Shown here: piece by piece, positions 20,743 to 55,080 of the stretch
Layout: the number at the start of each line of letters is the position of its first letter
Position numbering within the stretch: position 1 is the first letter of the stretch
From: a virus
IMG/VR virus record: IMGVR_UViG_3300047510_002037
Location: 1-64,000 of that record
Strand: one strand, 5' to 3'
DNA length: 64,000 nt
Program-made: the position numbers and the translations under genes
Notes under the pieces: generated by a model
What the model was told of the DNA's origin: nothing
Database searches by the model: none
What the model saw: only the letters and a program-made list of their open reading frames with translations

Positions 20743-22890
20743 TCAAATATTTAAATCTCTTATTGATTTAATTTGTAGTTTTAAATCATCAATTTGACCT
20801 TGCTGTTCTTTAATAGCTTCGATTAATACCGAAACTATATTTTGATATGCTACAGACTTAACTCCATCGTTTTCGTGGACAAGATCTGGAAGAACTTTTT
20901 CAACCTCTTGTGCGATTAATCCAATAGAATGTGTCTTATCACTCCTATAATCAAATTCAACTCCACGAAGATTTTGTACTTTTTCTAAAGCACCGTCTAT
21001 TGTTTTAATATTTTCTTTTAGAGATTCATCTGAGTTCGCAGTAACTGTTCCTCCACAAACCAAGTTAGTTCCATTGAAAGTTAGGTTTGCTGAACCAACT
21101 GCTTTGTTCAAACTGTTCTTATAAAGAACTTGGTTAGCGTTACCAATAGTATCAATATCTCTACCACCAGGAATATTAATTGTAGCAGTTGTACCAACTA
21201 AAGTTACACTACTTACACCAGCTCCTGTAAAATTGAGTACAGTTGCTCCAGATCCAACATAGACCCCTGCTGTAGCAACACCAACCCCTGCCTGCAATCC
21301 TGTTAGTCCAGTACCATTTCCACTTATAGTTCCAATGACGGTTAAGTTACCTTGTACTGTGACATTATTAGTCAAACCAACAATTTCTCTACCACCATCT
21401 CTAGTAACATCAATTTGATTTGGTGTGCCGTCAACAAATAAAACTGCTGCCCCACCCGCAGAAGTACTTGCTAAACCTACTGCTCCTGATGCAACAGTAA
21501 ATTCTGGAGTATTAAAAGATGCAATTCCCTTTACAGAAGATGTTGCTAGTGTATGAGTATTACTTGTTATAACTCCACTTACTCGTCCATATCCATCAAC
21601 GCTTAATCCACTAATGAATGATCCTGTACCAGATGTCAGATTGCTTCTTGACGTAGCTACTGTGGCTAAATCAATGCTATCAGGATTCATTACGATTCTG
21701 GAAGAACTAGCAGTTACTGCATCGATAACGTTTCCGGTTTTTACTAAACCATCACCTGCAATAATTTCTCCAGGACTACTGAATTGTGTGAATTCGATTG
21801 CAGATACACCGATAGAAACAGTTCCTTTTGTGATAAGAACGAAACCACCACCAGCATTGACTTCACCGCCAATAACGAACGAGAACGCACCAGCAGTAAT
21901 TTCTTCAGGTTCGTCGAAGTCAACTGCTCTTGTATATTCAAACGAAGTACTTACAGTACCAACTCTAGTTACTGTATAGTAACCATTTTCAAAGGTATTT
22001 CCAAATCCAAGAGGTCCACCCTGATCTTTGATTAGAATACGATCCCCAAGAATTGGGAAATAAGTATCGATAGATGTTATACCAACATTAACACCCCATA
22101 ACTTTGCTCCAACACCGCTTGGAGATGCTGACACGTTATTATAGTACGCATTTATTGATACTGTTGATGCAGCAGATACAGCTTTCTGAACTGTTAGACC
22201 AGCAACAGTAAAATTATCTACATATGATTTTGATGCTAGTTCTTCTGGGGCAATGGGAATAATAGTGTCTAAACTAACATATGATCTTTGAGAATAAAGA
22301 TAACTAGATATCCCAACATCTCCTACGATATCGAGAGTTCTATTCATTGATGATGTTCCAATACCAACTCTCAGTGTAGAGTCATTATAATAAAATGTTT
22401 GAGCTCCACCAAAGTCTCCATTATCATTATATTGAATTTGTCCATCAAAACCTGCTGCAGTTACTTGGTCAACAGTTATAGTAGCAATATTTCCAGATGC
22501 AGCTGCAGTTACTCCAGTACCAACAAAATTAACTGTCTTAATGCTTCCCGCAGCACCTACAATTGTGCCCTCATCTTGAACAGTAATTCCTTGGAAAGAT
22601 AAAATATCCTCAAGAGTTGTCCATTGAACCGAAGATCCGCCAACAGAAGTTAAAAGTTGGTTATTCTCCCCAGAATTCCCTTGGGAGTCATAAAGTTCTC
22701 TCCTAATTCGTATAGTTCTAGTATCAACATCGGCGGTCAAATCAAATCTACTAGTAGTTCCAATTCCAATGCTTCCACCAATGGCTACATTACCAATAAC
22801 ATTTAGTACAGTCTTACCTTCACTGTAATTGCTTATACCAATACCTAGGTCTCTCTGCTTTCCTGATAAAAATCTACCGTAGTTACTCAT
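20743..22890 (-). CDS. Tail fibre protein with C-terminal intramolecular chaperone (peptidase S74)
   Basis: NSDESLKENIKTIDGALEKV...GLIAQEVEKVLP...EAIKE; fibre motifs GDRILIKDQ and ENGYY. Confidence 0.85.
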   Translation of the reverse strand: MSNYGRFLSGKQRDLGIGISNYSEGKTVLNVIGNVAIGGSIGIGTTSRFDLTADVDTRTIRIRRELYDSQGNSGENNQLLTSVGGSSVQWTTLEDILSFQGITVQDEGTIVGAAGSIKTVNFVGTGVTAAASGNIATITVDQVTAAGFDGQIQYNDNGDFGGAQTFYYNDSTLRVGIGTSSMNRTLDIVGDVGISSYLYSQRSYVSLDTIIPIAPEELASKSYVDNFTVAGLTVQKAVSAASTVSINAYYNNVSASPSGVGAKLWGVNVGITSIDTYFPILGDRILIKDQGGPLGFGNTFENGYYTVTRVGTVSTSFEYTRAVDFDEPEEITAGAFSFVIGGEVNAGGGFVLITKGTVSIGVSAIEFTQFSSPGEIIAGDGLVKTGNVIDAVTASSSRIVMNPDSIDLATVATSRSNLTSGTGSFISGLSVDGYGRVSGVITSNTHTLATSSVKGIASFNTPEFTVASGAVGLASTSAGGAAVLFVDGTPNQIDVTRDGGREIVGLTNNVTVQGNLTVIGTISGNGTGLTGLQAGVGVATAGVYVGSGATVLNFTGAGVSSVTLVGTTATINIPGGRDIDTIGNANQVLYKNSLNKAVGSANLTFNGTNLVCGGTVTANSDESLKENIKTIDGALEKVQNLRGVEFDYRSDKTHSIGLIAQEVEKVLPDLVHENDGVKSVAYQNIVSVLIEAIKEQQGQIDDLKLQIKSIRDLNI

Positions 22891-43794: not shown

Positions 43795-46305
43795 TTATGC
43801 AAGTGCAATAACTCTAAGATCTCTTATTCTTATTGGGTATGTTTGATTTCTGGATGATCCAGTTAATTTTATACCAAAAGATCTAAATGATGGTAAATTA
43901 TTAATAGTAAATTCATAATCTCTAAATGCAAGTTCATTACTTAGGAATCCAAACACATCAGTTTTTGGAACCAAAGTATCAGAATTTCCATTACTCAATG
44001 AATCATTGATAACACTACCATTTTGTGCAATATTTGAGTATCCTGGGAATGGATAATAGATAAACTGCTCTCCAGCATTATTTGATATTCCGTAGAAAGC
44101 TCTTAGATCGCTATCTATGTTCACATATGCAGAAACAATAATTTTAATTGAGGTAGCTGGGGATTCTAGAGTTATTGGTTTTGTAGCATAAACAAATGAA
44201 TGTGGATCATCTTTTAGTGATGCAGTTCTTTCATCTGTTGCATAATTTTCAATAGGTCTATTAATTCTATTAGTAGTCAAAATAGCTGAAACTCTATCGA
44301 GGTCAATTACTGGAGAAACAAAATTACTAGTCGATGATAAATTTAAGGACATATTTAATGATTTATTTCCCTCAATACCATCCTCTGGAAGTCTATCAAG
44401 TTCGTTTATTCTAGAAGCTACAATTCTAGGTGACTTTAGATAATTTGTATCAGTCAATGAAATTTGATCAAATCCTTGATCAACAAAGGAAATTTCAGAT
44501 CCACCAACACTTCTACCAGAATATGTTCTAAGTGCTGCACTGATTGACGTTCCATTCAAAGTCATGGTTTGAACCAACGGCCTAATAATTTCAAAATTGA
44601 TATTTTGAGTTGCTTTTATGAAAGGACCGCCACAAGACTTTGTTTGTTTAAAATGTAATTCTGGTAATGTAAGTGGAGAATTATTTCTATCAAGTCCAGA
44701 TGTATTTGTATCAATTCTTACATGATAGTAATCCAAGTCAATAGGATTGGTAACAGTAGCATCTTGCAAAGTATGAACTTTGTTAATTCTTCGAAGTGAT
44801 ATTCCATTCAATTCGTACTTATAGACAACAGAACCAGCTGGATATTGATATGCTGGTGTTCCATCAATACCTCTTATGATGCCTGTTAATGTATTTCCCG
44901 AAACACCTTCATATGATAAGATTTCATCACCTATTTTAATATATCCTGGATTTGTTGAACTGACTCCAATATTTTCGAATGATGAAAATATACTAAATCC
45001 TGTATCTGGATCTGTTGCAATTCCTGTTAAAGGTATATTTTGTACTGTATCACTAGCATATCCGTTAACAAGTCTGGCGAAGGGTAAATCTGAAGTTACA
45101 TCGGATATTCTCACCAAATTTTCTGGAGCGTGCATTCCATGATTTGGATGATTTACTTTTATATGAAGTCCATCGGATTCAATATCAATATCAGATACTC
45201 TAACGTCAGATCCGGAGTTATAATTTATAGTAGTAGTAATACCTGAGTTATTTACATACTGTAAGGTATTTCCTGCACCAACTCTAAATGTTCCTTGTAC
45301 CTGATCCACTATTAACTGATTAATTCCTGATATATTAGATACGGATAATCTCAGATTTCTTCCTAAGATAGTGCTTCCCAAAGCATTTACTGTTACTACA
45401 TCTCCAACAGTATATCCAGACCCACCATTAACAATAGTCGCTCCAACAGCAACACCTTCTTGAATAGTTATGTTTGCGGTTGCATTTTTTCCATTCCCAG
45501 TTTCTGTTACTAATGGAACATCAAAGTACGTTAATCCGCCCAAAGATGGTGTATACCCAATACCCGAATTAACAATAGTTAAATTTCCAGAAGATGCACC
45601 AGCTGATCCAACTAAATTTGCTGTTGCATCGGAATCTTGCTGTAATATTGTATTTCCAACCTTGATATCAGGATCAGTTACAATCCTATTTAAATTTAAT
45701 CTTAATTTCTTGGAAGTAGTCTCTAAAGAATTTTTTGATAATTGCGCTATTTGATTATTCCCAAGCGCCAACTCTGGATTATAAAAATTAACATTACCAT
45801 CATTTGTGGTAAAATTAGCTCTGTATAAATTAAACTTTAAATCTTCATATTGATTTGCCGTCCAAGTCTGACCATTTTGTGATAAAAATAGAGAACCAGA
45901 ACTTGGTTGAGTACTTATTATGACCTGTTTAGATTCTTGTTGATTGATAAAGGTAACATCTGGTTCTCCAATATGTGATATCCAAACAGTATATTCGCTA
46001 GAATTTGAAGTTAAAACCAAAGCATGAAACTTATCTCCCTCAAGATATACTGGAGATGGAAAATTAACTCTTGTTGGTGCGGACGCATCTGGAGATGGAA
46101 GACATTTAGTTGGTTCTAAAACAACTTCGCTGAATGGGTAAATTTCTGGGGTTGGAAATCCAAGCTTCATAGGACGAAGTTGAACCGTAACGGGAACTTG
46201 TTTATCTATAGAATAAAAGAATATATCTACAGATGTTACGAAAATACCTGCCGGGTTTTCAACATAAAATGATTGCGCTAATGGATCTTGTATTTTTGTT
46301 GCCAT
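43795..46305 (-). CDS. C-terminal part of the VrlC/DUF4815-like virion protein, expressed as a separate gene
   Basis: Begins at DPLAQSF, has GSLFLSQNGQTW..Q.EDLKF.LYRA.F, ends IRDLRVIALA; own late promoter at 46350-46356. Confidence 0.8.
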   Translation of the reverse strand: MATKIQDPLAQSFYVENPAGIFVTSVDIFFYSIDKQVPVTVQLRPMKLGFPTPEIYPFSEVVLEPTKCLPSPDASAPTRVNFPSPVYLEGDKFHALVLTSNSSEYTVWISHIGEPDVTFINQQESKQVIISTQPSSGSLFLSQNGQTWTANQYEDLKFNLYRANFTTNDGNVNFYNPELALGNNQIAQLSKNSLETTSKKLRLNLNRIVTDPDIKVGNTILQQDSDATANLVGSAGASSGNLTIVNSGIGYTPSLGGLTYFDVPLVTETGNGKNATANITIQEGVAVGATIVNGGSGYTVGDVVTVNALGSTILGRNLRLSVSNISGINQLIVDQVQGTFRVGAGNTLQYVNNSGITTTINYNSGSDVRVSDIDIESDGLHIKVNHPNHGMHAPENLVRISDVTSDLPFARLVNGYASDTVQNIPLTGIATDPDTGFSIFSSFENIGVSSTNPGYIKIGDEILSYEGVSGNTLTGIIRGIDGTPAYQYPAGSVVYKYELNGISLRRINKVHTLQDATVTNPIDLDYYHVRIDTNTSGLDRNNSPLTLPELHFKQTKSCGGPFIKATQNINFEIIRPLVQTMTLNGTSISAALRTYSGRSVGGSEISFVDQGFDQISLTDTNYLKSPRIVASRINELDRLPEDGIEGNKSLNMSLNLSSTSNFVSPVIDLDRVSAILTTNRINRPIENYATDERTASLKDDPHSFVYATKPITLESPATSIKIIVSAYVNIDSDLRAFYGISNNAGEQFIYYPFPGYSNIAQNGSVINDSLSNGNSDTLVPKTDVFGFLSNELAFRDYEFTINNLPSFRSFGIKLTGSSRNQTYPIRIRDLRVIALA

Positions 46306-46379
46306 TTCTAGTAATTACCCTTTCTCAAGAAAACTAAATCTTATCTTATTATTTATTTTTCAATTCTTTTATTGTTTAT

Positions 46380-46790
46380 TTATCGGAGATTCTCAAAGTG
46401 GGATACATTTTCCTCCCCATAGTTTAAGGTTAGCTCATTATCAATATTAATATCATGAATAGCATAATGCCTCATAACCTCATTTACCTTATCAATTTCA
46501 TATTCAACATTTGGATTAAAGCTGTGATTGTACATTCCACAAAATCCCATACCGATAACATGATAATCGTCGTCAAATTTATAACTGTAATCTAAACATA
46601 TTTGAGTGTTGGTAATTTCATCCATAGGAACTTTAAAGTATGGAAATTCTTCTATAATTTCATACTTTTTTATCGGTTCTCTAGCAAAAACTCCCCACCT
46701 ATGAATTTCAGATCTTTTAATTATTAATTTATTAGCAAATAAAAGATTGTCTAAGTACAAAGATCTTGAAGATTCTAAACCCGTTCTCAT
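46380..46790 (-). CDS. SET-domain protein-lysine methyltransferase
   Basis: SEIHRWGVFA, YNHSFNPN and ELTLNYG signatures. Confidence 0.88.
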   Translation of the reverse strand: MRTGLESSRSLYLDNLLFANKLIIKRSEIHRWGVFAREPIKKYEIIEEFPYFKVPMDEITNTQICLDYSYKFDDDYHVIGMGFCGMYNHSFNPNVEYEIDKVNEVMRHYAIHDINIDNELTLNYGEENVSHFENLR

Positions 46791-46809
46791 ATAAACAACC
46801 TCACTACTC

Positions 46810-47067
46810 TCATTTTTTAGTTTTCAAGTAATCCACTTCTTGTTTCAATTCTTTTATAGCTTCAATCATAACAGGAATTAACTGTTTATAATCAACCGCC
46901 AAATAACCATTTTCTTGTTCTTCAACCATCTCAGGAAATTCTTTTTGAACTTCCTGAGCGATCACACCATATGCGTTTCCAGTTACTCCTGTTATATCTT
47001 TCATTTTATCGTTCCATTCATAATATTTCCCATTTAATTTTGCAATTTTATCAAGATAAAACCCCAT
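46810..47067 (-). CDS. Stand-alone C-terminal half of a peptidase S74 chaperone domain
   Basis: LDKIAKLNGKYYEWN...GVIAQEVQKEFPEMV...VDYKQLIPVMIEAIKEL; lacks the catalytic SD..LK. Confidence 0.8.
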   Translation of the reverse strand: MGFYLDKIAKLNGKYYEWNDKMKDITGVTGNAYGVIAQEVQKEFPEMVEEQENGYLAVDYKQLIPVMIEAIKELKQEVDYLKTKK

Positions 47068-50000
47068 TATTTAAATTAATACTAAACAATCTATTTAGTG
47101 CATTGTCGATGGGTTGAATGTTACTCTTGAGGTTGATATCACTCATACCCATTCCACCAGAAGGTGCGGGCGATGGACGTGGTGATGGACGTGGTGATGG
47201 ACGTGGCGCTGGCGCAGGCGCTGGACGTGGTGATGGACGTGGCGCTGGCGCAGGCGCTGGACGTGGTGATGGACGTGGCGCTGGTGCTGGTTGTGGTCTT
47301 GGTGATGGACGTGGTGCTGGTGGTGGGGATGGTCTTGGTGATGGTCTTGGTTCTGGTCTTGGTTGAGGTCTTGGTTGGACAACTGGGAATCCTCTTTGTT
47401 CAAACTTAACTTCACCTCTATCAGTAACTCTCTTAGCAGCTTTTGGTGTTTGTGTAATTACAAGAGAATTTTCCTTTTTACCTGAAATTTTTCCATCGTC
47501 ATTAACGTCAAATTTATCAAATTTAGGTGTTCCTGGTTTTAAAGTCTTGAGAACCTTTCCACCTGGAACTGATGAATCTTTAATTCTAAGATTACCATTT
47601 TTATCTTGAACTGTTACAACATTTGAAGTTTTCTTATCTCCACCAGTTGGTTTTGCTGGTTTGCCCCTTCCAGGAGCATTTTTTGGTGGAATTGGAACTC
47701 CTGCATCTTTGTATGCCTCTCTTGCTGCCGCTGCACCTTCTCTCTTTTTAATTTGTCTAAAATTATATTCTCTCGTTTTACCATTCTTGGTTGTAAATGG
47801 AACATAAGTAACTGCAGTAACTCCTCCTCTACTTCTTGTAACGTTCTTAACTTTAAATGTCTTTGGAGTTTCTTGTACAGGAGTTTTGTTGTGAGAGAGT
47901 AAACCTTCACAAATATAAGTGTGTGCATCATCAACTGTAATCTTAACTACATCACCATCATCAACTTGTTCAATTTCTAATAGTTTTTGTTCAGAAACTA
48001 CATCTCCAATTTGCATGTTTTTGCATTCTTTCCACAATCCATCAACATAGAATTTGTGAGAATCTGAGCAAATAATTTCACTAGTTTCAAACTTCAACTT
48101 AAATTTGGTAACATTATTCACTATTTCAACATAAGTAACCTGATAATCACCATATTCAAAAGTATTTTCATGGTAAGTTTTTACAAAATCACCAATTTGA
48201 AGTTCTCCTGCCTTCTTCTGTGTGCCGTCAGCAAGTAGAATTAGGCAATTTGGATCTGGACATGGCGGTGGTGGATCTCTCTTTGGATCATTAGGACTCA
48301 CTGGAGTTGCGGTTGACCCGCGAGGTGTCGGATCCGATGGTGATGGTTCTCTAGTTGGATAAACTGCAGGTGGTGGTGCAGGTTCTGGATCATTAATAAT
48401 AGTATTAATAATTTCATCAATTTCATCAGGATCAACTTCACCACCATCATAAGGAGCTGGTATAAAAATTGGAACGACTTGAGGAGGTGGTGGTTTTATG
48501 TTTCCAACAACTGTACTTGCTACAACCTCTGGTGGTCCAACAGAAACATCAGTTCTAGTATCAACAATTGTTGCGGTTTCAGTCTGTACATTTCTAACAG
48601 ACAAAACACTTTCTTGAACTACTTTTACTGTTCCTTCAGCATAGAATTTTTCTTCTGCACCAGTTACTGGAACTCCAATAACAGTAACATTTTTCTCTTG
48701 ACTAGTTATTCTAAAAAGTTTTGTTCCAGTTTCGAAAGTTGGATTAGATGGTACGTTTGGATTTGGAATAAAGAATGAACCAATAAGAGTACCGTTTCTA
48801 TCAGTAACCATTCTAATTCTAGAAACAGTAGCTACCGCTTTACTAGTTTCTCCTACTAAAGTCATTCCAACAGTAACATATCCATAATAATCACCTTGAG
48901 TTTTATTTGATAAACTGAATGTATCTACGTTTAATATTGTTGAAGATGAAGAATATGTATCAGGAACCAGTGTAGATGTATTATATGGATTTGTTATAAA
49001 AATATCTTCCGGGACATTATATGGACCATATTTGTGTGCAGCTGCTGCAACTCTAAATCTAATAAATTTATCTTCAAGCGGAGTAATACCATTTCCACTT
49101 TGAATTGGTGATGTGTTTAATGTCTTAACATTTTCTCCAACTTGGAACACTCCACTAACCATTTGAATTTCTAATAACTTTGGTACAATGTAACGATTAA
49201 CATCTACCTTATCAAAAAATGCATATACTTCAGTAAGTGGTTTTAATCTCTTAGCAGTAAATTCTATATTTCTTGATCTCATTGCTGGGATAAGATCTGA
49301 ACTTACAGTCACTTCTCCTACTTTGATACTTTCAAAGCTCTCTCTTTCTTTATATGCAACTCCAGTTTTTGTTGAAGTTCCGGTCTTTTGTGTTACTGCT
49401 AAATCTTCTCTGATTAAATCATAACCATTAACTACTGTTCTTGAACCAGCTGGAATTTTTGTGGATCCAGTCCATACAGTCTCCCATGCTCCCCAAGTCA
49501 CGGGACCAAATCCAGTTTGTTGATTGAATTGTGACGCTGTTAGCTGAGACTGAGTTTTTGTATATTTTCCTTGAACATCAATTACTCTAGGAGTTAATTT
49601 AACTTGATCTGCCCAAACATCAGAAGATGGAACTAATTGTATACTTCCCGCATAATACGCATTTCTAAATGATGTTACTGGAGCAACTCTACTTGCATAT
49701 CCTTGAGTTATATAAGCAACTTCTTCATACTGCAAAGTTACTAATTGTCCAGTTCTCTTAACACCTCTACCAATTAGATTTTGATCAAAACGTAAATCTG
49801 AAGTTTGTGCTGGAGAAGTGCTAATTCCTAGTGTATTTTCAGTACCAAGAACTAAATCTATCTGGGTAGTGAATGGTGCTGGTCTTAACTCTCCAAGTTT
49901 TGTATCTATACTATTTTTTACATCAGTCACTTTTAATTGTGGTTCAGCTGATGAAAAGTCATCAACAAAGAAACCAGACTTAAAGCGATTTAATCCATTT

Positions 50001-53000
50001 GCATCTCCAATAAACAAATTAGCAGTATCGCTTTCTAATAGTGAAAGTGATGTATAAAACTCTAAGTTTTTTATTCTATTCTCTAAGTCACGGATATCTT
50101 TCATTTGATATCTCTTATATTCAGCTAAATTAATATTAGCTTGAGATACGTCGCAGAGATATGCTGGTAATGATATTGTAGCAATTTCCAGTGATTCTGG
50201 TTTTCCTAAAGGAATTCTTGGATTTTCGGATGCTTCACCCTGAACTAAATGAAATTGTCCGGTTCTATCTAAAAATATTCTATCTATTCTTGGAAGATAA
50301 TATGAATAATTTAGAACAATAGATTCATCAGATGTAGCTATCGGATTTGTTGCTGAATTGTTATAATCAGCATCAATCCTTCTTCCAAAAAATTCAAATG
50401 AAGAGAATGCGTTTTCCTGTACTATGTACTCATTAACTCTTGGCCTGATATCGATTATATCAGAATGTCGGATACCATTAGTTGATGGTATATCACAATA
50501 ATCATAATCAGAATAAGAATTTACTGTTGTAATATCACCATCATCAGATGTATTATAAGTTGCGTGCTCAAAATATATTTTTAATTTTCTAGTTGGCTCT
50601 TTTGCATTTGGTTTTCTAACTAATCTCGAATAATCATATAGTGTTGATCTATAACCCGAATCTAAAGTAAAATCGGAAGTTATATCATTATCAGAACCTG
50701 TTAGTGTTACAATTGTTCCCTGAACATTGCTATTCTTAAAGGTTACTCTTTCCCCTTCAGTAAAGGATATTGTATTTAAATATATAAATCCTATTCTGGA
50801 ATCTGATATCCTTTCAGCATATATTGCTAAAGCACCACTTGTGCTTCCTAAAAATTCTTCTCCAATAAGAAGATCGGTTGTTTTTGCTGTATTTCCACTA
50901 AGGTTTGTTATAACCATTTTACGAATATCTGGTTCAGCAGTATCATCCGATTGATACACACCGTATATTTTTGTAACATCTGGCCAATTTAATGATATTT
51001 CCTCATCCTGAACTCTAGATCCATATGGGAAATTACCAAACTGAAGTCCATCATTACTTGTAGTTGTTCCTATACCAGAATAGGAATACTTTGATTTATC
51101 TATTATAATAGATTTTATTTTATTTTTTATTTTTTTCTTAGATTTTACCTTTGTTTTCGTTAATGTTGCTAATAAGGTTCCCGTAACATTCGTACCTAAT
51201 CCAACAATTGTTACTTCCCTATTTCCATCAGAAAATGCAAACTTATCTGAACTAAGTGGTTCTATAGTTCCATCATCTCTTGTTAAAACATATCTTTCTT
51301 CATCAAAAGGAAGAAAAATTCCATTACTTCCAGCTGAAATTGTATTAGTTTGATTATTTGTTATAGAAACGTCAAAAGATTTCTTTACAGTCAGAGAACC
51401 ATCGAGAACATCTACATTTGAAACGAATCTCTTTGGTAATGTTGTGTATAAAGTGCTATCGAGAGAATTTTGCAGAGAAGATTTTAGTACTCTAAAATCT
51501 GATGGTGTTATTTGTGATGCGGGTAGAATTCCATTGCATAGTCCAGTAACAGTTTGAACCGAACTAATTGTTATTGTATTTGTAGAAACACTTACTACTT
51601 TAGAGTATGTTATATCCTGATAGGATGGATTTGAATAGGCAACAATATTTCCTTCAAAAACATTATTAGTAAATGAATAATTAGAAGATCTTACTGTGGA
51701 TATACCTCCACTAGATGGAGTAATCGTTACTTGCCCAACATTTAGTGCAGGAGACTGCAATACATCAGCTGTAAATGGATATCCATTATCATTTAGTGCA
51801 TATATGGATTTTACATCAGATACAGAATACTGTTTTGTCGAAGTTGTTACTCTAGTATCCTCTATACCATCATATATCAATTTTTCTCCAATAGAAAATT
51901 TACCCCTTACATTGTAAGCAGTGATAATACCTGAATTTGTTACTGAATATCTTAGGAAAGCGGTTGCCCCACTTGCTTTTCCTTTGATATGAGTTGGTAC
52001 TTGTAAAGATAATGGCTCATTAATTGTAATATCAACATATGGATGGATGTCATATAATGATACATCCCATTGATTTAAGTCTGGGAATGCCGCATTGTAA
52101 CTTCCGGATTCTAATGCATAATCATATATTCTACATATACCAATTTCTTTACCTGGAGCAGTTGACTGAGATGCTCCCACTCTTTCATCTCTAAGAGATA
52201 AGAAGAACGATGTTGATAAACCTAATGTTGGACTACCATATACTCTATTTACAGTAAATGTTGGCCCAGTGTAATTAATTACACCTTGATTGTTTAATGT
52301 TCTAATGGTTCTTGGTTTTTCAAAATCTAATAAAACCGGAGAAATTACATCAACTTCATATCCCTTTATATAAGCTTTTAACGGAGATATTTTGTATATT
52401 CCCTTATTATCTGATGGTTTGAAACCCATATCAGTGGATTCTGTTTCAAAATATAAACCATCATTACCTTTTCTATTATTTAAGGAATGTCTCACAAATA
52501 ATGAAGGTGCTTTTACATAAAAATCACCTGATTGGTCATAGGTTCTTCTGGCTAGTTCATCTGCAATTTTGGTATATTCTGTATCTCTATTCTGAGTTAT
52601 TAGCACTCCATTCCTAACTTCCATTATTTGGACAAATTTTTCCAAATTGGTGGAATTAAGTGGTAATTTTATTAGTTCTGCCGTTATTGAAAATCTATCT
52701 GCTCCAGGTGCAGAAAAATTTGTAAATCCTTGGGCGTTGTCTACTAGGTTATCGTCATCATTATATGTTACAATTTCTTCACTTATTTCAAAACCAATTT
52801 TATATGATGGTTGATTTGTATATTGATCTAGAAGTAAGAATTCACTATCTACACTAACAAAATGCCCTCTAAGATAATATACGCCATCTTCAATTTTAAC
52901 ACCAGATCCAATTCCATTTGGATTTCCTTCAACAGTTAGAGCAACTCTAGATCCAGGTTGAAATACTATTGGATTTTCCAAATCAGGATCAATTCCATCA

Positions 53001-53512
53001 TCCTCATTTTCTGCTGTTGAATCATCAGTAGTGTCTGATGTATCAACTAGTTCTTCCACAATAATTGCTTCATTTGGAGCAAAACCAGTGAAAGATGATG
53101 ATCTGCTATCAGAACTTAAAAATGATATGTATAGTGTATTAATATTCCTAGTTGAATCATCTTCGGGAAGTATTCCCATTACAACTGCTCTTATTCCACT
53201 CTTAGCTCCTCGTATTGTTTTATTCAATAAAGAATACATGTAGGAATCAATGGGAGTTCCAAGATAACTTGCCTGAAGTAATACGCAAGGTAAATCTTGA
53301 ATATAAGTCGCTCCGCCACCAGTAACTAATGACCCTTCCTTGAAGAAATGATTTCCAAACTCTTCAATCTGACTTTGCAGCATAGACTGCAAAGTAGTTA
53401 ATTCTCTAGCTTGAACTGGATATCCAGGTTTGAATAAAACTTTATGATAATTATTGTCTCTTTTGAAATCGTCAAAATATGGAGAGATATTTAAGTCTAG
53501 TTCTTGTGGCAT
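47051..53512 (-). CDS. VrlC/DUF4815-like virion protein N-terminal part fused to Hint domain, basic cargo, Pro repeats and N-half S74
   Basis: SPYFDDF...KVLFKPGYPVQARELTTLQS, APGADR, RFKSGFFVDDF; follows gp8. Confidence 0.85.
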   Translation of the reverse strand: MPQELDLNISPYFDDFKRDNNYHKVLFKPGYPVQARELTTLQSMLQSQIEEFGNHFFKEGSLVTGGGATYIQDLPCVLLQASYLGTPIDSYMYSLLNKTIRGAKSGIRAVVMGILPEDDSTRNINTLYISFLSSDSRSSSFTGFAPNEAIIVEELVDTSDTTDDSTAENEDDGIDPDLENPIVFQPGSRVALTVEGNPNGIGSGVKIEDGVYYLRGHFVSVDSEFLLLDQYTNQPSYKIGFEISEEIVTYNDDDNLVDNAQGFTNFSAPGADRFSITAELIKLPLNSTNLEKFVQIMEVRNGVLITQNRDTEYTKIADELARRTYDQSGDFYVKAPSLFVRHSLNNRKGNDGLYFETESTDMGFKPSDNKGIYKISPLKAYIKGYEVDVISPVLLDFEKPRTIRTLNNQGVINYTGPTFTVNRVYGSPTLGLSTSFFLSLRDERVGASQSTAPGKEIGICRIYDYALESGSYNAAFPDLNQWDVSLYDIHPYVDITINEPLSLQVPTHIKGKASGATAFLRYSVTNSGIITAYNVRGKFSIGEKLIYDGIEDTRVTTSTKQYSVSDVKSIYALNDNGYPFTADVLQSPALNVGQVTITPSSGGISTVRSSNYSFTNNVFEGNIVAYSNPSYQDITYSKVVSVSTNTITISSVQTVTGLCNGILPASQITPSDFRVLKSSLQNSLDSTLYTTLPKRFVSNVDVLDGSLTVKKSFDVSITNNQTNTISAGSNGIFLPFDEERYVLTRDDGTIEPLSSDKFAFSDGNREVTIVGLGTNVTGTLLATLTKTKVKSKKKIKNKIKSIIIDKSKYSYSGIGTTTSNDGLQFGNFPYGSRVQDEEISLNWPDVTKIYGVYQSDDTAEPDIRKMVITNLSGNTAKTTDLLIGEEFLGSTSGALAIYAERISDSRIGFIYLNTISFTEGERVTFKNSNVQGTIVTLTGSDNDITSDFTLDSGYRSTLYDYSRLVRKPNAKEPTRKLKIYFEHATYNTSDDGDITTVNSYSDYDYCDIPSTNGIRHSDIIDIRPRVNEYIVQENAFSSFEFFGRRIDADYNNSATNPIATSDESIVLNYSYYLPRIDRIFLDRTGQFHLVQGEASENPRIPLGKPESLEIATISLPAYLCDVSQANINLAEYKRYQMKDIRDLENRIKNLEFYTSLSLLESDTANLFIGDANGLNRFKSGFFVDDFSSAEPQLKVTDVKNSIDTKLGELRPAPFTTQIDLVLGTENTLGISTSPAQTSDLRFDQNLIGRGVKRTGQLVTLQYEEVAYITQGYASRVAPVTSFRNAYYAGSIQLVPSSDVWADQVKLTPRVIDVQGKYTKTQSQLTASQFNQQTGFGPVTWGAWETVWTGSTKIPAGSRTVVNGYDLIREDLAVTQKTGTSTKTGVAYKERESFESIKVGEVTVSSDLIPAMRSRNIEFTAKRLKPLTEVYAFFDKVDVNRYIVPKLLEIQMVSGVFQVGENVKTLNTSPIQSGNGITPLEDKFIRFRVAAAAHKYGPYNVPEDIFITNPYNTSTLVPDTYSSSSTILNVDTFSLSNKTQGDYYGYVTVGMTLVGETSKAVATVSRIRMVTDRNGTLIGSFFIPNPNVPSNPTFETGTKLFRITSQEKNVTVIGVPVTGAEEKFYAEGTVKVVQESVLSVRNVQTETATIVDTRTDVSVGPPEVVASTVVGNIKPPPPQVVPIFIPAPYDGGEVDPDEIDEIINTIINDPEPAPPPAVYPTREPSPSDPTPRGSTATPVSPNDPKRDPPPPCPDPNCLILLADGTQKKAGELQIGDFVKTYHENTFEYGDYQVTYVEIVNNVTKFKLKFETSEIICSDSHKFYVDGLWKECKNMQIGDVVSEQKLLEIEQVDDGDVVKITVDDAHTYICEGLLSHNKTPVQETPKTFKVKNVTRSRGGVTAVTYVPFTTKNGKTREYNFRQIKKREGAAAAREAYKDAGVPIPPKNAPGRGKPAKPTGGDKKTSNVVTVQDKNGNLRIKDSSVPGGKVLKTLKPGTPKFDKFDVNDDGKISGKKENSLVITQTPKAAKRVTDRGEVKFEQRGFPVVQPRPQPRPEPRPSPRPSPPPAPRPSPRPQPAPAPRPSPRPAPAPAPRPSPRPAPAPAPRPSPRPSPRPSPAPSGGMGMSDINLKSNIQPIDNALNRLFSINLNNGVLS
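47161..47380. repeat. GC-rich tandem repeats encoding (PRPS/PAPA)n
   Basis: 12-bp units ggacgtggtgat and ggcgctggcgca with 36-bp higher-order duplication. Confidence 0.9.
47888..48262 (-). other. Hint (intein-like) domain, 125 aa, no homing endonuclease
   Basis: C1-PDPNCLILLADG block A, IICSDSHKFY block B, HTYICEGLLSHN block G; +1 residue is Lys. Confidence 0.88.
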
Positions 53513-53523
53513 GGTGTTTTAAC

Positions 53524-55080
53524 TTAGAATTGCAAAATAACCTTAATGTCTTCTTTTTGGCTTTTTGATCTTGTGATCGAAGGTCTGTTATCTACATAAA
53601 TTATTTCACCTGAGTATTTCTTAACTTCTGGTTGAGAAATTCCCTCTTCAAAAAACTGGCCAAGGTTGTATGTCTTATTATTTATCGTGGTAGTTATCCC
53701 AGTAAAATCAACATCTATTGATAGATTACTTGATCCACCCTTAACAATTATCTCTCCCCCATCATCAGGAACGTCAGTAAATCTATTTAAGTTATATCCA
53801 TAAGTAGGGATTTTTTGACTACCATCACTATTAAATCCAACTAAGGATTTATCCTGCCAGTATTTTAAAACTCCAGTTGCATCATCATAAGAAACAACCC
53901 TACCAACAGCAGTACTTCCGACACCAATAGTCTGTGTTACAAAAGAATCTGGAGAAAAAGTAGTAAAGCTATATGCAATTCCTGTTAATTTTAATGCATA
54001 TAGAGCACTGACCTTATCAAGATTTAATAAAGTTTCAGAAGAACCAGATACTAATGGATTTCTAACGATTCCAACACGAGAAATTTGATTTCCTACTATA
54101 AAATCTGGATTTTCAGTATCATTTTCAATCCTAGTATACATTAGAACATTGGTTGCTCCCAATTCTCTATAGATGTCGTAACCATGTCCTCCAGTTGGTG
54201 GTATAATAACATCAAACTCTGGTGTAGTAATTCCTGGTGGAAATGTAGTTGCAGTTAAATCAACTCTTCCATGTGTATATCCATATCCACCATCAGAGAT
54301 AAAAATATCTTCAACTTTTGCATCATTGTTTACTATAATTGTTGCTTTAGCACCAAATCCATCACCTTTTACTGGAATATTTGTATAAGTAATACCTCCT
54401 GTTCCAAGTCCAACACCTCTATTTTTAATTGTAATTATTTTTAATTGTCCACTAGATTGTGCGTTCTGTCTTATTGGATCATTAACAATATCAGTTTCCC
54501 AATTTTTTGGAACTGGTATGAAATTAACAGAATCGAATTTTACAATATCTGATGGTTTAATAGTATAAAGATATTTCCAAATATACCCATCTCCACTATC
54601 CCCAGCAGACTTTGGTTCCAAATCAGTAAATAATGGTTCATCTAGAGATGGTTTTCCTTCAGGTGTTTCTGGAGTTGTACCATTTTGCAAGCAAATATAA
54701 ACTCTATAATCACTATTCATCACATAAAAATTGGATGAATACAAATTTGTTGCGTTTGATGGTTTTGCTAAGTTATTCCTACTGATATCATGCCTATACA
54801 TGTCGTAAGTAGTACCAGAATTCCAAGTTATTTTCCTTATAACCTGTCTGATATCATCAGCATTTATCTTTTTCAAGGCAATCATAGTATCCCATATATC
54901 AGACTCCTGTTCAAAAGAGTCTCTAGGGGATGGTGGATTTGAGTCCCAACTGGAGGAATAATCAGTTGGATTAGCTAATCCCAAAAAAGCATAAAATTTA
55001 TTATTTTCTGAGTCCTCGGCAAGGGACACGAAATTTTTTGCATTTAATATTCTAATTTGATCAGTTATTATTGCAGCCAT
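53524..55080 (-). CDS. gp8: Baseplate wedge subunit
   Basis: YRVYICLQNG, GDGYIWKYLYTI, YSGEIIYVDNR...EDIKVILQF; late promoter at 55101-55107. Confidence 0.9.
   Translation of the reverse strand: MAAIITDQIRILNAKNFVSLAEDSENNKFYAFLGLANPTDYSSSWDSNPPSPRDSFEQESDIWDTMIALKKINADDIRQVIRKITWNSGTTYDMYRHDISRNNLAKPSNATNLYSSNFYVMNSDYRVYICLQNGTTPETPEGKPSLDEPLFTDLEPKSAGDSGDGYIWKYLYTIKPSDIVKFDSVNFIPVPKNWETDIVNDPIRQNAQSSGQLKIITIKNRGVGLGTGGITYTNIPVKGDGFGAKATIIVNNDAKVEDIFISDGGYGYTHGRVDLTATTFPPGITTPEFDVIIPPTGGHGYDIYRELGATNVLMYTRIENDTENPDFIVGNQISRVGIVRNPLVSGSSETLLNLDKVSALYALKLTGIAYSFTTFSPDSFVTQTIGVGSTAVGRVVSYDDATGVLKYWQDKSLVGFNSDGSQKIPTYGYNLNRFTDVPDDGGEIIVKGGSSNLSIDVDFTGITTTINNKTYNLGQFFEEGISQPEVKKYSGEIIYVDNRPSITRSKSQKEDIKVILQF

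Follow-up and report, generated by a model that had tools for sequence, protein, structure and literature searches.

VrlC is regarded as a component of the baseplate, which in cyano- and pelagimyophages is double-layered (PMC7029224). In the Synechococcus phages S-SCSM1 and S-SM2 and in Prochlorococcus phage P-TIM68 it is encoded by one gene (2519–2624 amino acids), which lies between the genes for the baseplate protein gp8 and the neck protein gp13. This report concerns a VrlC locus of different architecture in a stretch of 64,000 nucleotides (positions 1 to 64,000 of IMG/VR virus record IMGVR_UViG_3300047510_002037, which is 84.7 kb long), here referred to as the window. The gene neighbours are the same as in the three cultured phages, but VrlC is not encoded as one polypeptide. 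It is divided between an open reading frame (ORF) of 2153 amino acids and a second ORF of 836 amino acids. The region between the two conserved parts carries a Hint domain, a Lys/Arg-rich tail, an S74 domain distributed over two genes and a gene for a SET-domain protein.

Both the Hint and the S74 domain have described relatives. S74 domains normally follow a trimeric fibre or a β-helix. Aranko and coworkers are said to have found in 2013 that the BIL domain of C. thermocellum ligates without nucleophilic side chains. The BIL2 domain couples its N-terminal flank to the side chain of a lysine, forming an isopeptide (PMC8616854). Tail-fibre chaperones of an architecture similar to that discussed here for S74, but acting in trans, are known as well, e.g. 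Pam3 gp25 (PMC9608196).

The two ORFs match VrlC one after the other. Pfam DUF4815 is found in the 2153-aa ORF (E = 8.4e-56). Positions 1–1410 of the phrog_358 profile (2056 positions) match residues 1–1657 of this ORF, and positions 1421–2055 match the 836-aa ORF. With blastp, residues 1–1669 align with residues 1–1686 of S-SM2 VrlC and the 836-aa ORF aligns with residues 1699–2519, so that only 12 residues of S-SM2 VrlC lie between the two matches. The 836-aa ORF is 40–50% identical to the C-termini of the single-gene VrlC proteins of S-SCSM1, S-SM2 and P-TIM68. Furthermore, the solved DUF4815 chain of PDB entry 9euf (1152 aa), for which a literature search found no paper, matches both halves. 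These alignments support the view that the two ORFs are halves of a single VrlC/DUF4815 protein. A megablast search of the locus against cultured phages gave no match.

Homology of the 2153-aa ORF to its orthologues stops at about residue 1669 (blastp). The following linker (residues 1670–1750) has no counterpart in the unsplit orthologues, is rich in proline (25 of 81 residues) and has an isoelectric point (pI) of 4.1. The 836-aa ORF has the N-terminus M-A-T-K-I-Q-DPLAQSF and starts six residues ahead of the conserved DPLAQSF. Since the S-SM2 matches end and resume at these sites, the extra DNA extends from about 48505 to 46288 (2.2 kb). A repeat of about 130 residues (Pro-Arg-Pro/Pro-Gln-Pro) is found at the same linker in S-SCSM1 (L001:2658-10469), directly ahead of DPLAQSF. 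The linker is thus subject to expansion in unsplit genes too.

The arrangement is present in a second assembly. Contig L005, which belongs to a different record, matches over 11.4 kb at 99.2% identity, and despite 86 substitutions the ORF layout and the S74 junction are unchanged. The 85-aa protein encoded downstream of the 2153-aa ORF is found in identical form on 11 contigs. The second assembly argues against a misassembly or a read error. A single-base sequencing error at the S74 junction is ruled out by this assembly together with the divergent relatives.

Related loci (numbered with the prefix L) were found by using the tail and the first part of the C-half as queries against viral contigs, and the modules were then mapped for each locus. 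The 80 closest of at least 584 loci were surveyed. In a FastTree phylogeny of 85 VrlC C-parts, all 25 split forms fall into one clade (support 98), and a single change suffices to account for the trait. The window is sister to the group L011–L021 (support 99). VrlC is a single gene in 57 other relatives, including the three cultured phages. The split appears to have arisen once and to be routine across its clade, with 25 of 25 members carrying it. Most likely it dates back to the ancestor of this clade of uncultured marine T4-like (cyanophage-type) viruses.

The content of the gap differs between the members. L011–L016 encode the N-half, the Hint domain, a homologous basic domain, the Pro-Arg-Pro (PRP) repeat and the S74 N-part, followed by a separate S74 C-part and the C-half, without a SET gene. 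L017 has the same arrangement but two Hint domains, whereas L018–L021 have none. About 15 loci within L023–L054 are split and have other tails, composed of a small domain and low-complexity sequence, often with a Lys/Arg run at the end. In L029, L037 and L039 the tail ends with an S74 N-part, behind which the S74 C-part is encoded separately, and a SET gene precedes the C-half in L039 and L049. The gap between the VrlC halves is thus a hot spot at which small modules are gained, lost and exchanged; the Hint domain, the basic tail, the split S74 domain and the SET gene come and go independently.

Two surveyed loci show further irregularities. In L021:2836-11896 the coding sequences of the two VrlC halves and of the S74 C-part are scattered over several frames, which indicates either a decaying copy or a poor assembly. 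In the otherwise unsplit L099:2201-6442 the frame upstream of DPLAQSF stops after 606 residues, within the N-part. This early stop may be a second break point or an assembly error.

An earlier note on this DNA, made from the letters alone, had described the order of Hint domain, basic region, PRP repeats, S74 halves, SET gene and an 836-aa ORF starting at DPLAQSF. The ORFs and Pfam matches bear this layout out in every part. Its statement that the DPLAQSF region is normally the contiguous C-terminus of the protein also holds, for the cultured cyanomyophages and for 57 of the 85 surveyed relatives. The two comparisons it had proposed agree with its view: both halves are collinear with VrlC/DUF4815 orthologues (phrog_358, S-SM2), and the tails at this site do differ among relatives. 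The note had further pictured a cassette of about 2 kb that landed in the variable linker. About 2.2 kb of additional DNA is indeed located there, but a single landing in this genome gives way to an old split with a repeatedly remodelled gap, shared by 25 of 25 clade members. The note's own grounds for abandoning its view were a misassembly, against which the second assembly with the same layout and junction speaks, and orthologues that are routinely two genes. The latter is true within the split clade and not in the 57 single-gene relatives among 85.

The Hint domain starts with Cys1751, contains Ser1816-x-x-His1819 and ends with His1874-Asn1875; the +1 residue is Lys1876 and there is no endonuclease. 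Cys1751, Ser1816 and His1819 are invariant in the Hint alignment, and block B has the (Thr/Ser)-x-x-His pattern. The terminal His-Asn pair of canonical inteins is present, whereas Lys1876 takes the place of the +1 Cys, Ser or Thr. The score against PT-HINT (PF07591) is 23.0–25.7 bits and stays below the threshold of 27.7 bits. An AlphaFold2 (AF2) model of the domain has a pLDDT of 85.8. Foldseek relates this model to BIL domains, inteins and hedgehog proteins (E values of 1e-10 to 1e-6, TM-scores of 0.75–0.86). The best fold matches are Tetrahymena BUBL1 BIL2 (TM 0.86), the C. thermocellum BIL domain (TM 0.84) and the cyanophage-like gp41-1 intein. The sequence features of A-type BIL domains are found as well: Cys1 and His-Asn without a +1 nucleophile, a location in variable regions and frequent tandem copies. 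According to the model and these features, the domain is predicted to be a Hint domain of the BIL type rather than a canonical intein.

A search of 1.84 billion representative proteins yielded 767 relatives of the Hint domain (E ≤ 0.001). Residues were surveyed in 174 copies from the best 150 proteins, 19 of which carry two to four copies. Residue 1 is the nearly invariant Cys of a C-P-x-P motif, five residues before the Cys first picked by eye. The domain terminates with Ser-His-Asn in 144 of about 155 ends that were read. The +1 residue is Lys in 128 of 154 copies (83%), Ser or Thr in three and Cys in none. The host proteins include VrlC, a tape-measure-like protein, Gly-rich fibre-like and very Arg/Lys-rich proteins, and the copies examined are located in low-complexity linkers. 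A tblastn search with the Hint domain and the basic region against 50,697 phage records returned one weak Hint match only.

Several relatives have unusual arrangements. L022:942-9608, which is sister to P-TIM68, encodes an unsplit VrlC of 2888 aa with one in-frame Hint domain in an Arg-rich linker, located between an Asn/Thr repeat and a long linker of the Arg-Gly-Gly type; this Hint domain ends in S-H-N-K. The tape-measure-like metagenomic protein P0018 (1304 aa) has two tandem copies of the phage subfamily in a Pro-rich linker. The metagenomic proteins P0013–P0016 (475–612 aa) consist almost solely of Arg/Lys-rich stretches that are parted by two Hint copies of the subfamily, and they look like polyproteins of basic peptides. 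A locus search with one of them (P0014) found no genomic context.

On the outcome of Hint processing the sequence features point both ways. The conserved +1 lysine, the presence or absence of the domain in otherwise equal proteins and its occurrence in unsplit VrlC lean towards ligation. The restriction to linkers and the fact that the host gene tolerates a split at the same site, on the other hand, lean towards cleavage. Splicing of the VrlC halves in trans is ruled out, since the 836-aa ORF has no C-terminal intein half. A bolder reading of the same features takes the phage Hint subfamily as a natural lysine-dependent, ATP-free ligase or splicing element, in which the Cys1 thioester is resolved by the +1 lysine, combined with an S74 domain that acts in trans. 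The flanks might then be re-joined by a peptide or isopeptide bond, or the VrlC N-part might be bound covalently to a lysine-rich component of the virion. This proposal is tentative and we would sooner expect it to fail than to hold. If true, a lysine ligase together with a trans-acting S74 domain would represent a new self-processing chemistry for the building of phage particles.

The tail that follows the Hint domain (residues 1876–2043) is strongly basic (27 Lys, 11 Arg, pI 10.4). A core of about 70 residues is conserved and common to the tails of other split relatives in the alignment; the identity to the tails of L011–L021 is 38–42% (tblastn). The PRP array behind it is encoded by a 36-nt repeat in about four copies, contains 37 Pro and 13 Arg in 80 residues (2044–2123) and ends in G-G-M-G-M just before the S74 serine. 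One loop of the basic region resembles an EF-hand. It stays below threshold (E = 0.078), is not conserved in the relatives and was treated as a chance match.

The earlier note had compared the locus to polymorphic effector systems with a virion anchor, an autoprotease and a released cargo. In such a toxin-like cassette the VrlC N-part would serve as the anchor, the Hint domain would free the basic cargo, S74 would trim it, and an effector would be delivered to the host, with accessory genes downstream. The tails that vary at this site among relatives, the position of a Hint domain with a weak PT-HINT match ahead of the cargo, the +1 residue other than Cys, Ser or Thr and the two self-cutting motifs that flank the cargo are all compatible with this. 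However, polymorphic toxins combine a C-terminal toxin domain with a cognate immunity gene, and family, fold and Atlas searches found neither: no tail contains a toxin or enzyme domain, and the downstream genes encode the other half of S74 and the SET protein rather than an immunity-like protein. L018–L021 have the same tail without a Hint domain, so release is dispensable. VrlC is located in the baseplate, outside the DNA ejection path (PMC7029224). Furthermore, the nearest solved folds are BIL domains that ligate, and the +1 lysine fits these, so the release of a cargo that the note had assumed is not assured. An effector cassette is therefore unlikely and the resemblance remains an analogy.

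The S74 domain is distributed over two ORFs. The last 30 residues of the 2153-aa ORF match positions 1–25 of Pfam S74 and a separate 85-aa ORF matches positions 17–57. The two ORFs overlap by 17 nt, the second being in the +1 frame. The C-part alone scores 38.1 bits (cut-off 22 bits). The N-part contains the catalytic dyad Ser2124 and Lys2129 in the motif S-D-x-x-L-K-x-N-I, which is kept in all relatives seen. The truncated ending of the N-part recurs in L011–L021, L029, L037, L039 and L112, and neither these loci nor the window and the second assembly have a whole S74 domain in cis at the C-terminus of the client protein. In L112 the same two-gene module is found behind a protein other than VrlC. 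Stand-alone S74 C-parts of 82–93 aa form at least 139 clusters with 57–100% identity. These are well separated from the cis S74 domains of long proteins, the best of which come no closer than 58% identity and 74 bits. An internal control is provided by a fibre-like ORF of 715 aa (20743-22890, minus strand), which ends in an intact cis S74 domain (positions 1–58, 65 bits). These observations indicate that the split S74 is real and represents a recurrent two-gene module that most likely forms a subfamily of its own. A phmmer search with the joined S74 reading against PDB sequences gave no match, and we came across no published account of two genes that encode one S74 domain between them.

The break could in principle be bridged by a programmed +1 frameshift at a G-G-G-G run, which would yield a normal cis S74 domain. 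Skipping one base at this run restores the S74 match over positions 1–57 of 58 (55.8 bits, E = 5.6e-15), and the 85-aa ORF lacks a clear ribosome-binding site. The junctions of the relatives, however, have no slippery site in common and lie in other frames. In L011–L016 a stop codon is followed by an ATG about 9 nt later, and in L029, L037 and L112 the ORFs overlap in ATGA. Since the junctions differ from each other and from the window, a shared programmed frameshift is unlikely and separate, possibly coupled, translation is likely. Comparison with the intact S74 domain of the 715-aa fibre additionally reveals a copy of the first helix in each part, and read-through would consequently yield a product with an insert of 16 residues. 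We consider frameshifting decidedly improbable. The duplicated helix suggests an out-of-register recombination at the origin of the S74 split.

Pairwise ratios of nonsynonymous to synonymous divergence (dN/dS) are 0.16–0.30 for the Hint domain, 0.10–0.30 for the basic domain, 0.05–0.14 for the S74 C-part and 0.18–0.22 for SET; these values are in the same range as those of the VrlC C-half (0.14–0.31). Purifying selection acts on every module. Between L011 and L012 or L016 the synonymous divergence of the Hint domain is 0.12–0.17, whereas that of the flanking basic domain and of the C-half is about 0.58, which points to a recent exchange of the Hint domain alone. The idea that the region is mere debris of illegitimate recombination, with a frameshifted S74 pseudogene and a dead Hint domain between VrlC halves that alone matter, would accommodate the interrupted S74 domain with its scar-like doubled helix and the abundance of low-complexity repeats, but is hardly tenable and already largely refuted by the selection data (dN/dS of 0.05–0.30 at synonymous divergences of up to 0.7 for Hint, basic domain, S74 C-part and SET), by Hint and S74 catalytic residues preserved across hundreds of copies and by the uniform length of the S74 C-half family with its clusters.

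In this virus VrlC is made from two cistrons, with the break at a flexible linker between domains. The Hint domain would remove itself post-translationally by formation of a thioester at Cys1751 and cyclisation of Asn1875. A re-joining of the flanks via Lys1876 as in BIL domains, by which the basic tail would stay on the N-half, is slightly favoured. A plain double cleavage that frees a basic polypeptide of 26.5 kDa is nearly as likely. The S74 N-part and the free C-part may assemble in trans into the usual trimeric chaperone, which would bring about trimerisation of the tail and subsequently cut at Ser2124. The tail itself could represent a polymorphic, positively charged appendage of the baseplate, and SET may methylate lysines of the tail or a host protein. 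Taken as a whole, this explanation (two-cistron VrlC, remodelled gap, self-removing BIL-type Hint domain, trans S74 and polymorphic basic appendage) is the one we consider probable, with clear reservations.

Several points weigh against it. We infer the autoprocessing, the assembly of S74 in trans and every cleavage site from motifs and homology. No obvious ribosome-binding site precedes the 85-aa ORF, and the split S74 domain follows a Pro-rich spacer, unlike the usual trimeric fibre or β-helix. The AF2 model of the basic domain is poor (pLDDT 56.5). Foldseek against the PDB gave no match with E ≤ 0.001 for this domain, the ESM Atlas no usable match and NCBIfam nothing relevant and no family match, so that its role is a guess. 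The phylogeny carries local (SH-like) support only, and the survey is drawn from the closest loci.

Every gene of the region is located on the minus strand. The features are listed in the table.

Table. Features of the divided VrlC locus in the window
Feature	Position	Strand	Basis
ORF of 2153 aa: VrlC N-part, Pro linker, Hint, basic region, PRP repeat and start of S74	47051..53512	minus	
VrlC N-part (residues 1–1669 of the 2153-aa ORF), probable baseplate structural part with DUF4815	48506..53512	minus	phrog_358, blastp, Pfam, PDB 9euf
Acidic Pro-rich linker (residues 1670–1750)	48263..48505	minus	composition; end of orthologue homology
Predicted mini Hint domain of the BIL type (residues 1751–1875)	47888..48262	minus	alignment, AF2, Foldseek, sub-threshold Pfam match
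Basic tail domain (residues 1876–2043)	47384..47887	minus	alignment, tblastn, dN/dS
Pro-Arg-Pro/Pro-Ala repeat spacer (residues 2044–2123)	47144..47383	minus	repeat and composition
S74 N-part (residues 2124–2153 and stop)	47051..47143	minus	Pfam S74 positions 1–25
S74 C-part, separate 85-aa ORF	46810..47067	minus	Pfam S74 positions 17–57, 38.1 bits
Gene for a minimal SET-domain lysine methyltransferase (136 aa)	46380..46790	minus	Pfam SET, 46.8 bits
Two NATAAATA late-promoter-like motifs	46350..46384	minus	motif evidence only
VrlC C-part (836 aa), own cistron	43795..46305	minus	phrog_358 positions 1421–2055

The spacer ahead of the 836-aa ORF comprises 74 nt and contains the two NATAAATA motifs. 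One of these, GATAAATA, spans the stop codon of SET, 79 nt before the start of the VrlC C-part; the other, AATAAATA, is located 52 nt before this start. Upstream of the C-half the relaxed form alone is present; the T4 late promoter TATAAATA does not occur there in exact form. As motifs, these elements fit a separate late promoter for the VrlC C-half. The window contains 23 copies of the heptamer ATAAATA on its minus strand (e.g. 53679-53686, 46377-46384 and 46350-46357) and not one on its plus strand. This bias fits a late-promoter core for structural genes on the minus strand.

The SET domain scores well above its Pfam threshold of 22.4 bits and contains N-H-S-F-N-P-N (motif N-H-S-x-x-P-N). 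Its best match in the PDB is PBCV-1 vSET (E = 1.2e-11), and the gene is preceded by a Shine-Dalgarno-like G-A-G-G. L039 and L049 carry relatives at the VrlC site, and further viral contigs carry them elsewhere. In L107–L110 homologues with 40–52% identity do not adjoin VrlC, so this small gene seems to move between contexts. We take SET to be a mobile accessory gene; that it is linked to the Lys-rich tail next to it is no more than a suggestion.

The VrlC linker is a polymorphic site that was not described before, located in the baseplate of abundant marine myoviruses. Since it adjoins a known host-recognition region, its tails could have an influence on host range. The Hint subfamily of phage virion proteins is large and cohesive and has a lysine where inteins need a nucleophile. 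It lends itself to testing whether splicing or ligation can proceed without a nucleophilic side chain and is a possible source of small tools for protein engineering. The split S74 domain links intramolecular tail-fibre chaperones with separately encoded ones and can be used to separate the part for catalysis from the part for trimerisation. For annotation, names can now be given to both halves of VrlC and to the 85-aa "hypothetical proteins".

Compared with known systems, the locus combines familiar parts in a different arrangement. The SET protein shares its size and SET motifs with PBCV-1 vSET, but is phage-encoded and located inside a baseplate-neck operon. With the phrog_358 VrlC of cyano- and pelagimyophages the locus shares the collinear halves, gp8 upstream and gp13–gp16 downstream. 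VrlC is a single gene in S-SM2, S-SCSM1 and P-TIM68, whereas in the window it consists of two cistrons and about 2.2 kb of added modules. Polymorphic toxin systems of the PT-HINT type resemble the locus in their large anchor, in the Hint domain before a variable C-terminal tail and in tails that differ between relatives. In the window, by contrast, there is neither a toxin fold nor an immunity gene, and some close relatives do without the Hint domain.

Fractured genes with split inteins (Dassa et al. 2009, PMC2677866; gp41-1) likewise consist of a phage gene in two ORFs with foreign genes in between and a Hint-family domain at the break, and gp41-1 is among the closest solved relatives. They differ from the window, where no C-terminal intein half precedes the VrlC C-part and an endonuclease gene is absent. 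The A-type BIL domains (C. thermocellum, PDB entry 2lwy; Tetrahymena BUBL1 BIL2, PDB entry 6y75) share the Hint fold, Cys1 and the terminal His-Asn with the domain of the window. Neither has a +1 Cys, Ser or Thr or an endonuclease, and both are found in variable protein parts and in tandem copies. The subfamily of the window, on the other hand, resides in phage virion proteins (the baseplate protein VrlC, tape-measure-like and Gly-rich proteins), has a signature with C-P-x-P at the start and S-H-N-K at the end, and scores below the Pfam thresholds for PT-HINT and Intein_splicing.

The S74 domain belongs to the same Peptidase_S74 family as those of K1F, T5 pb1 and GA-1 gp12, with which it shares the S-D-x-x-x-K dyad and the position at the end of a virion protein. 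In contrast to these, it is encoded by two genes (30 residues in cis and 85 in trans) and follows a Pro- or Gly-rich spacer instead of a β-helix. Its predicted architecture is intermediate between S74 chaperones in cis and tail-fibre chaperones that act in trans, e.g. Pam3 gp25.

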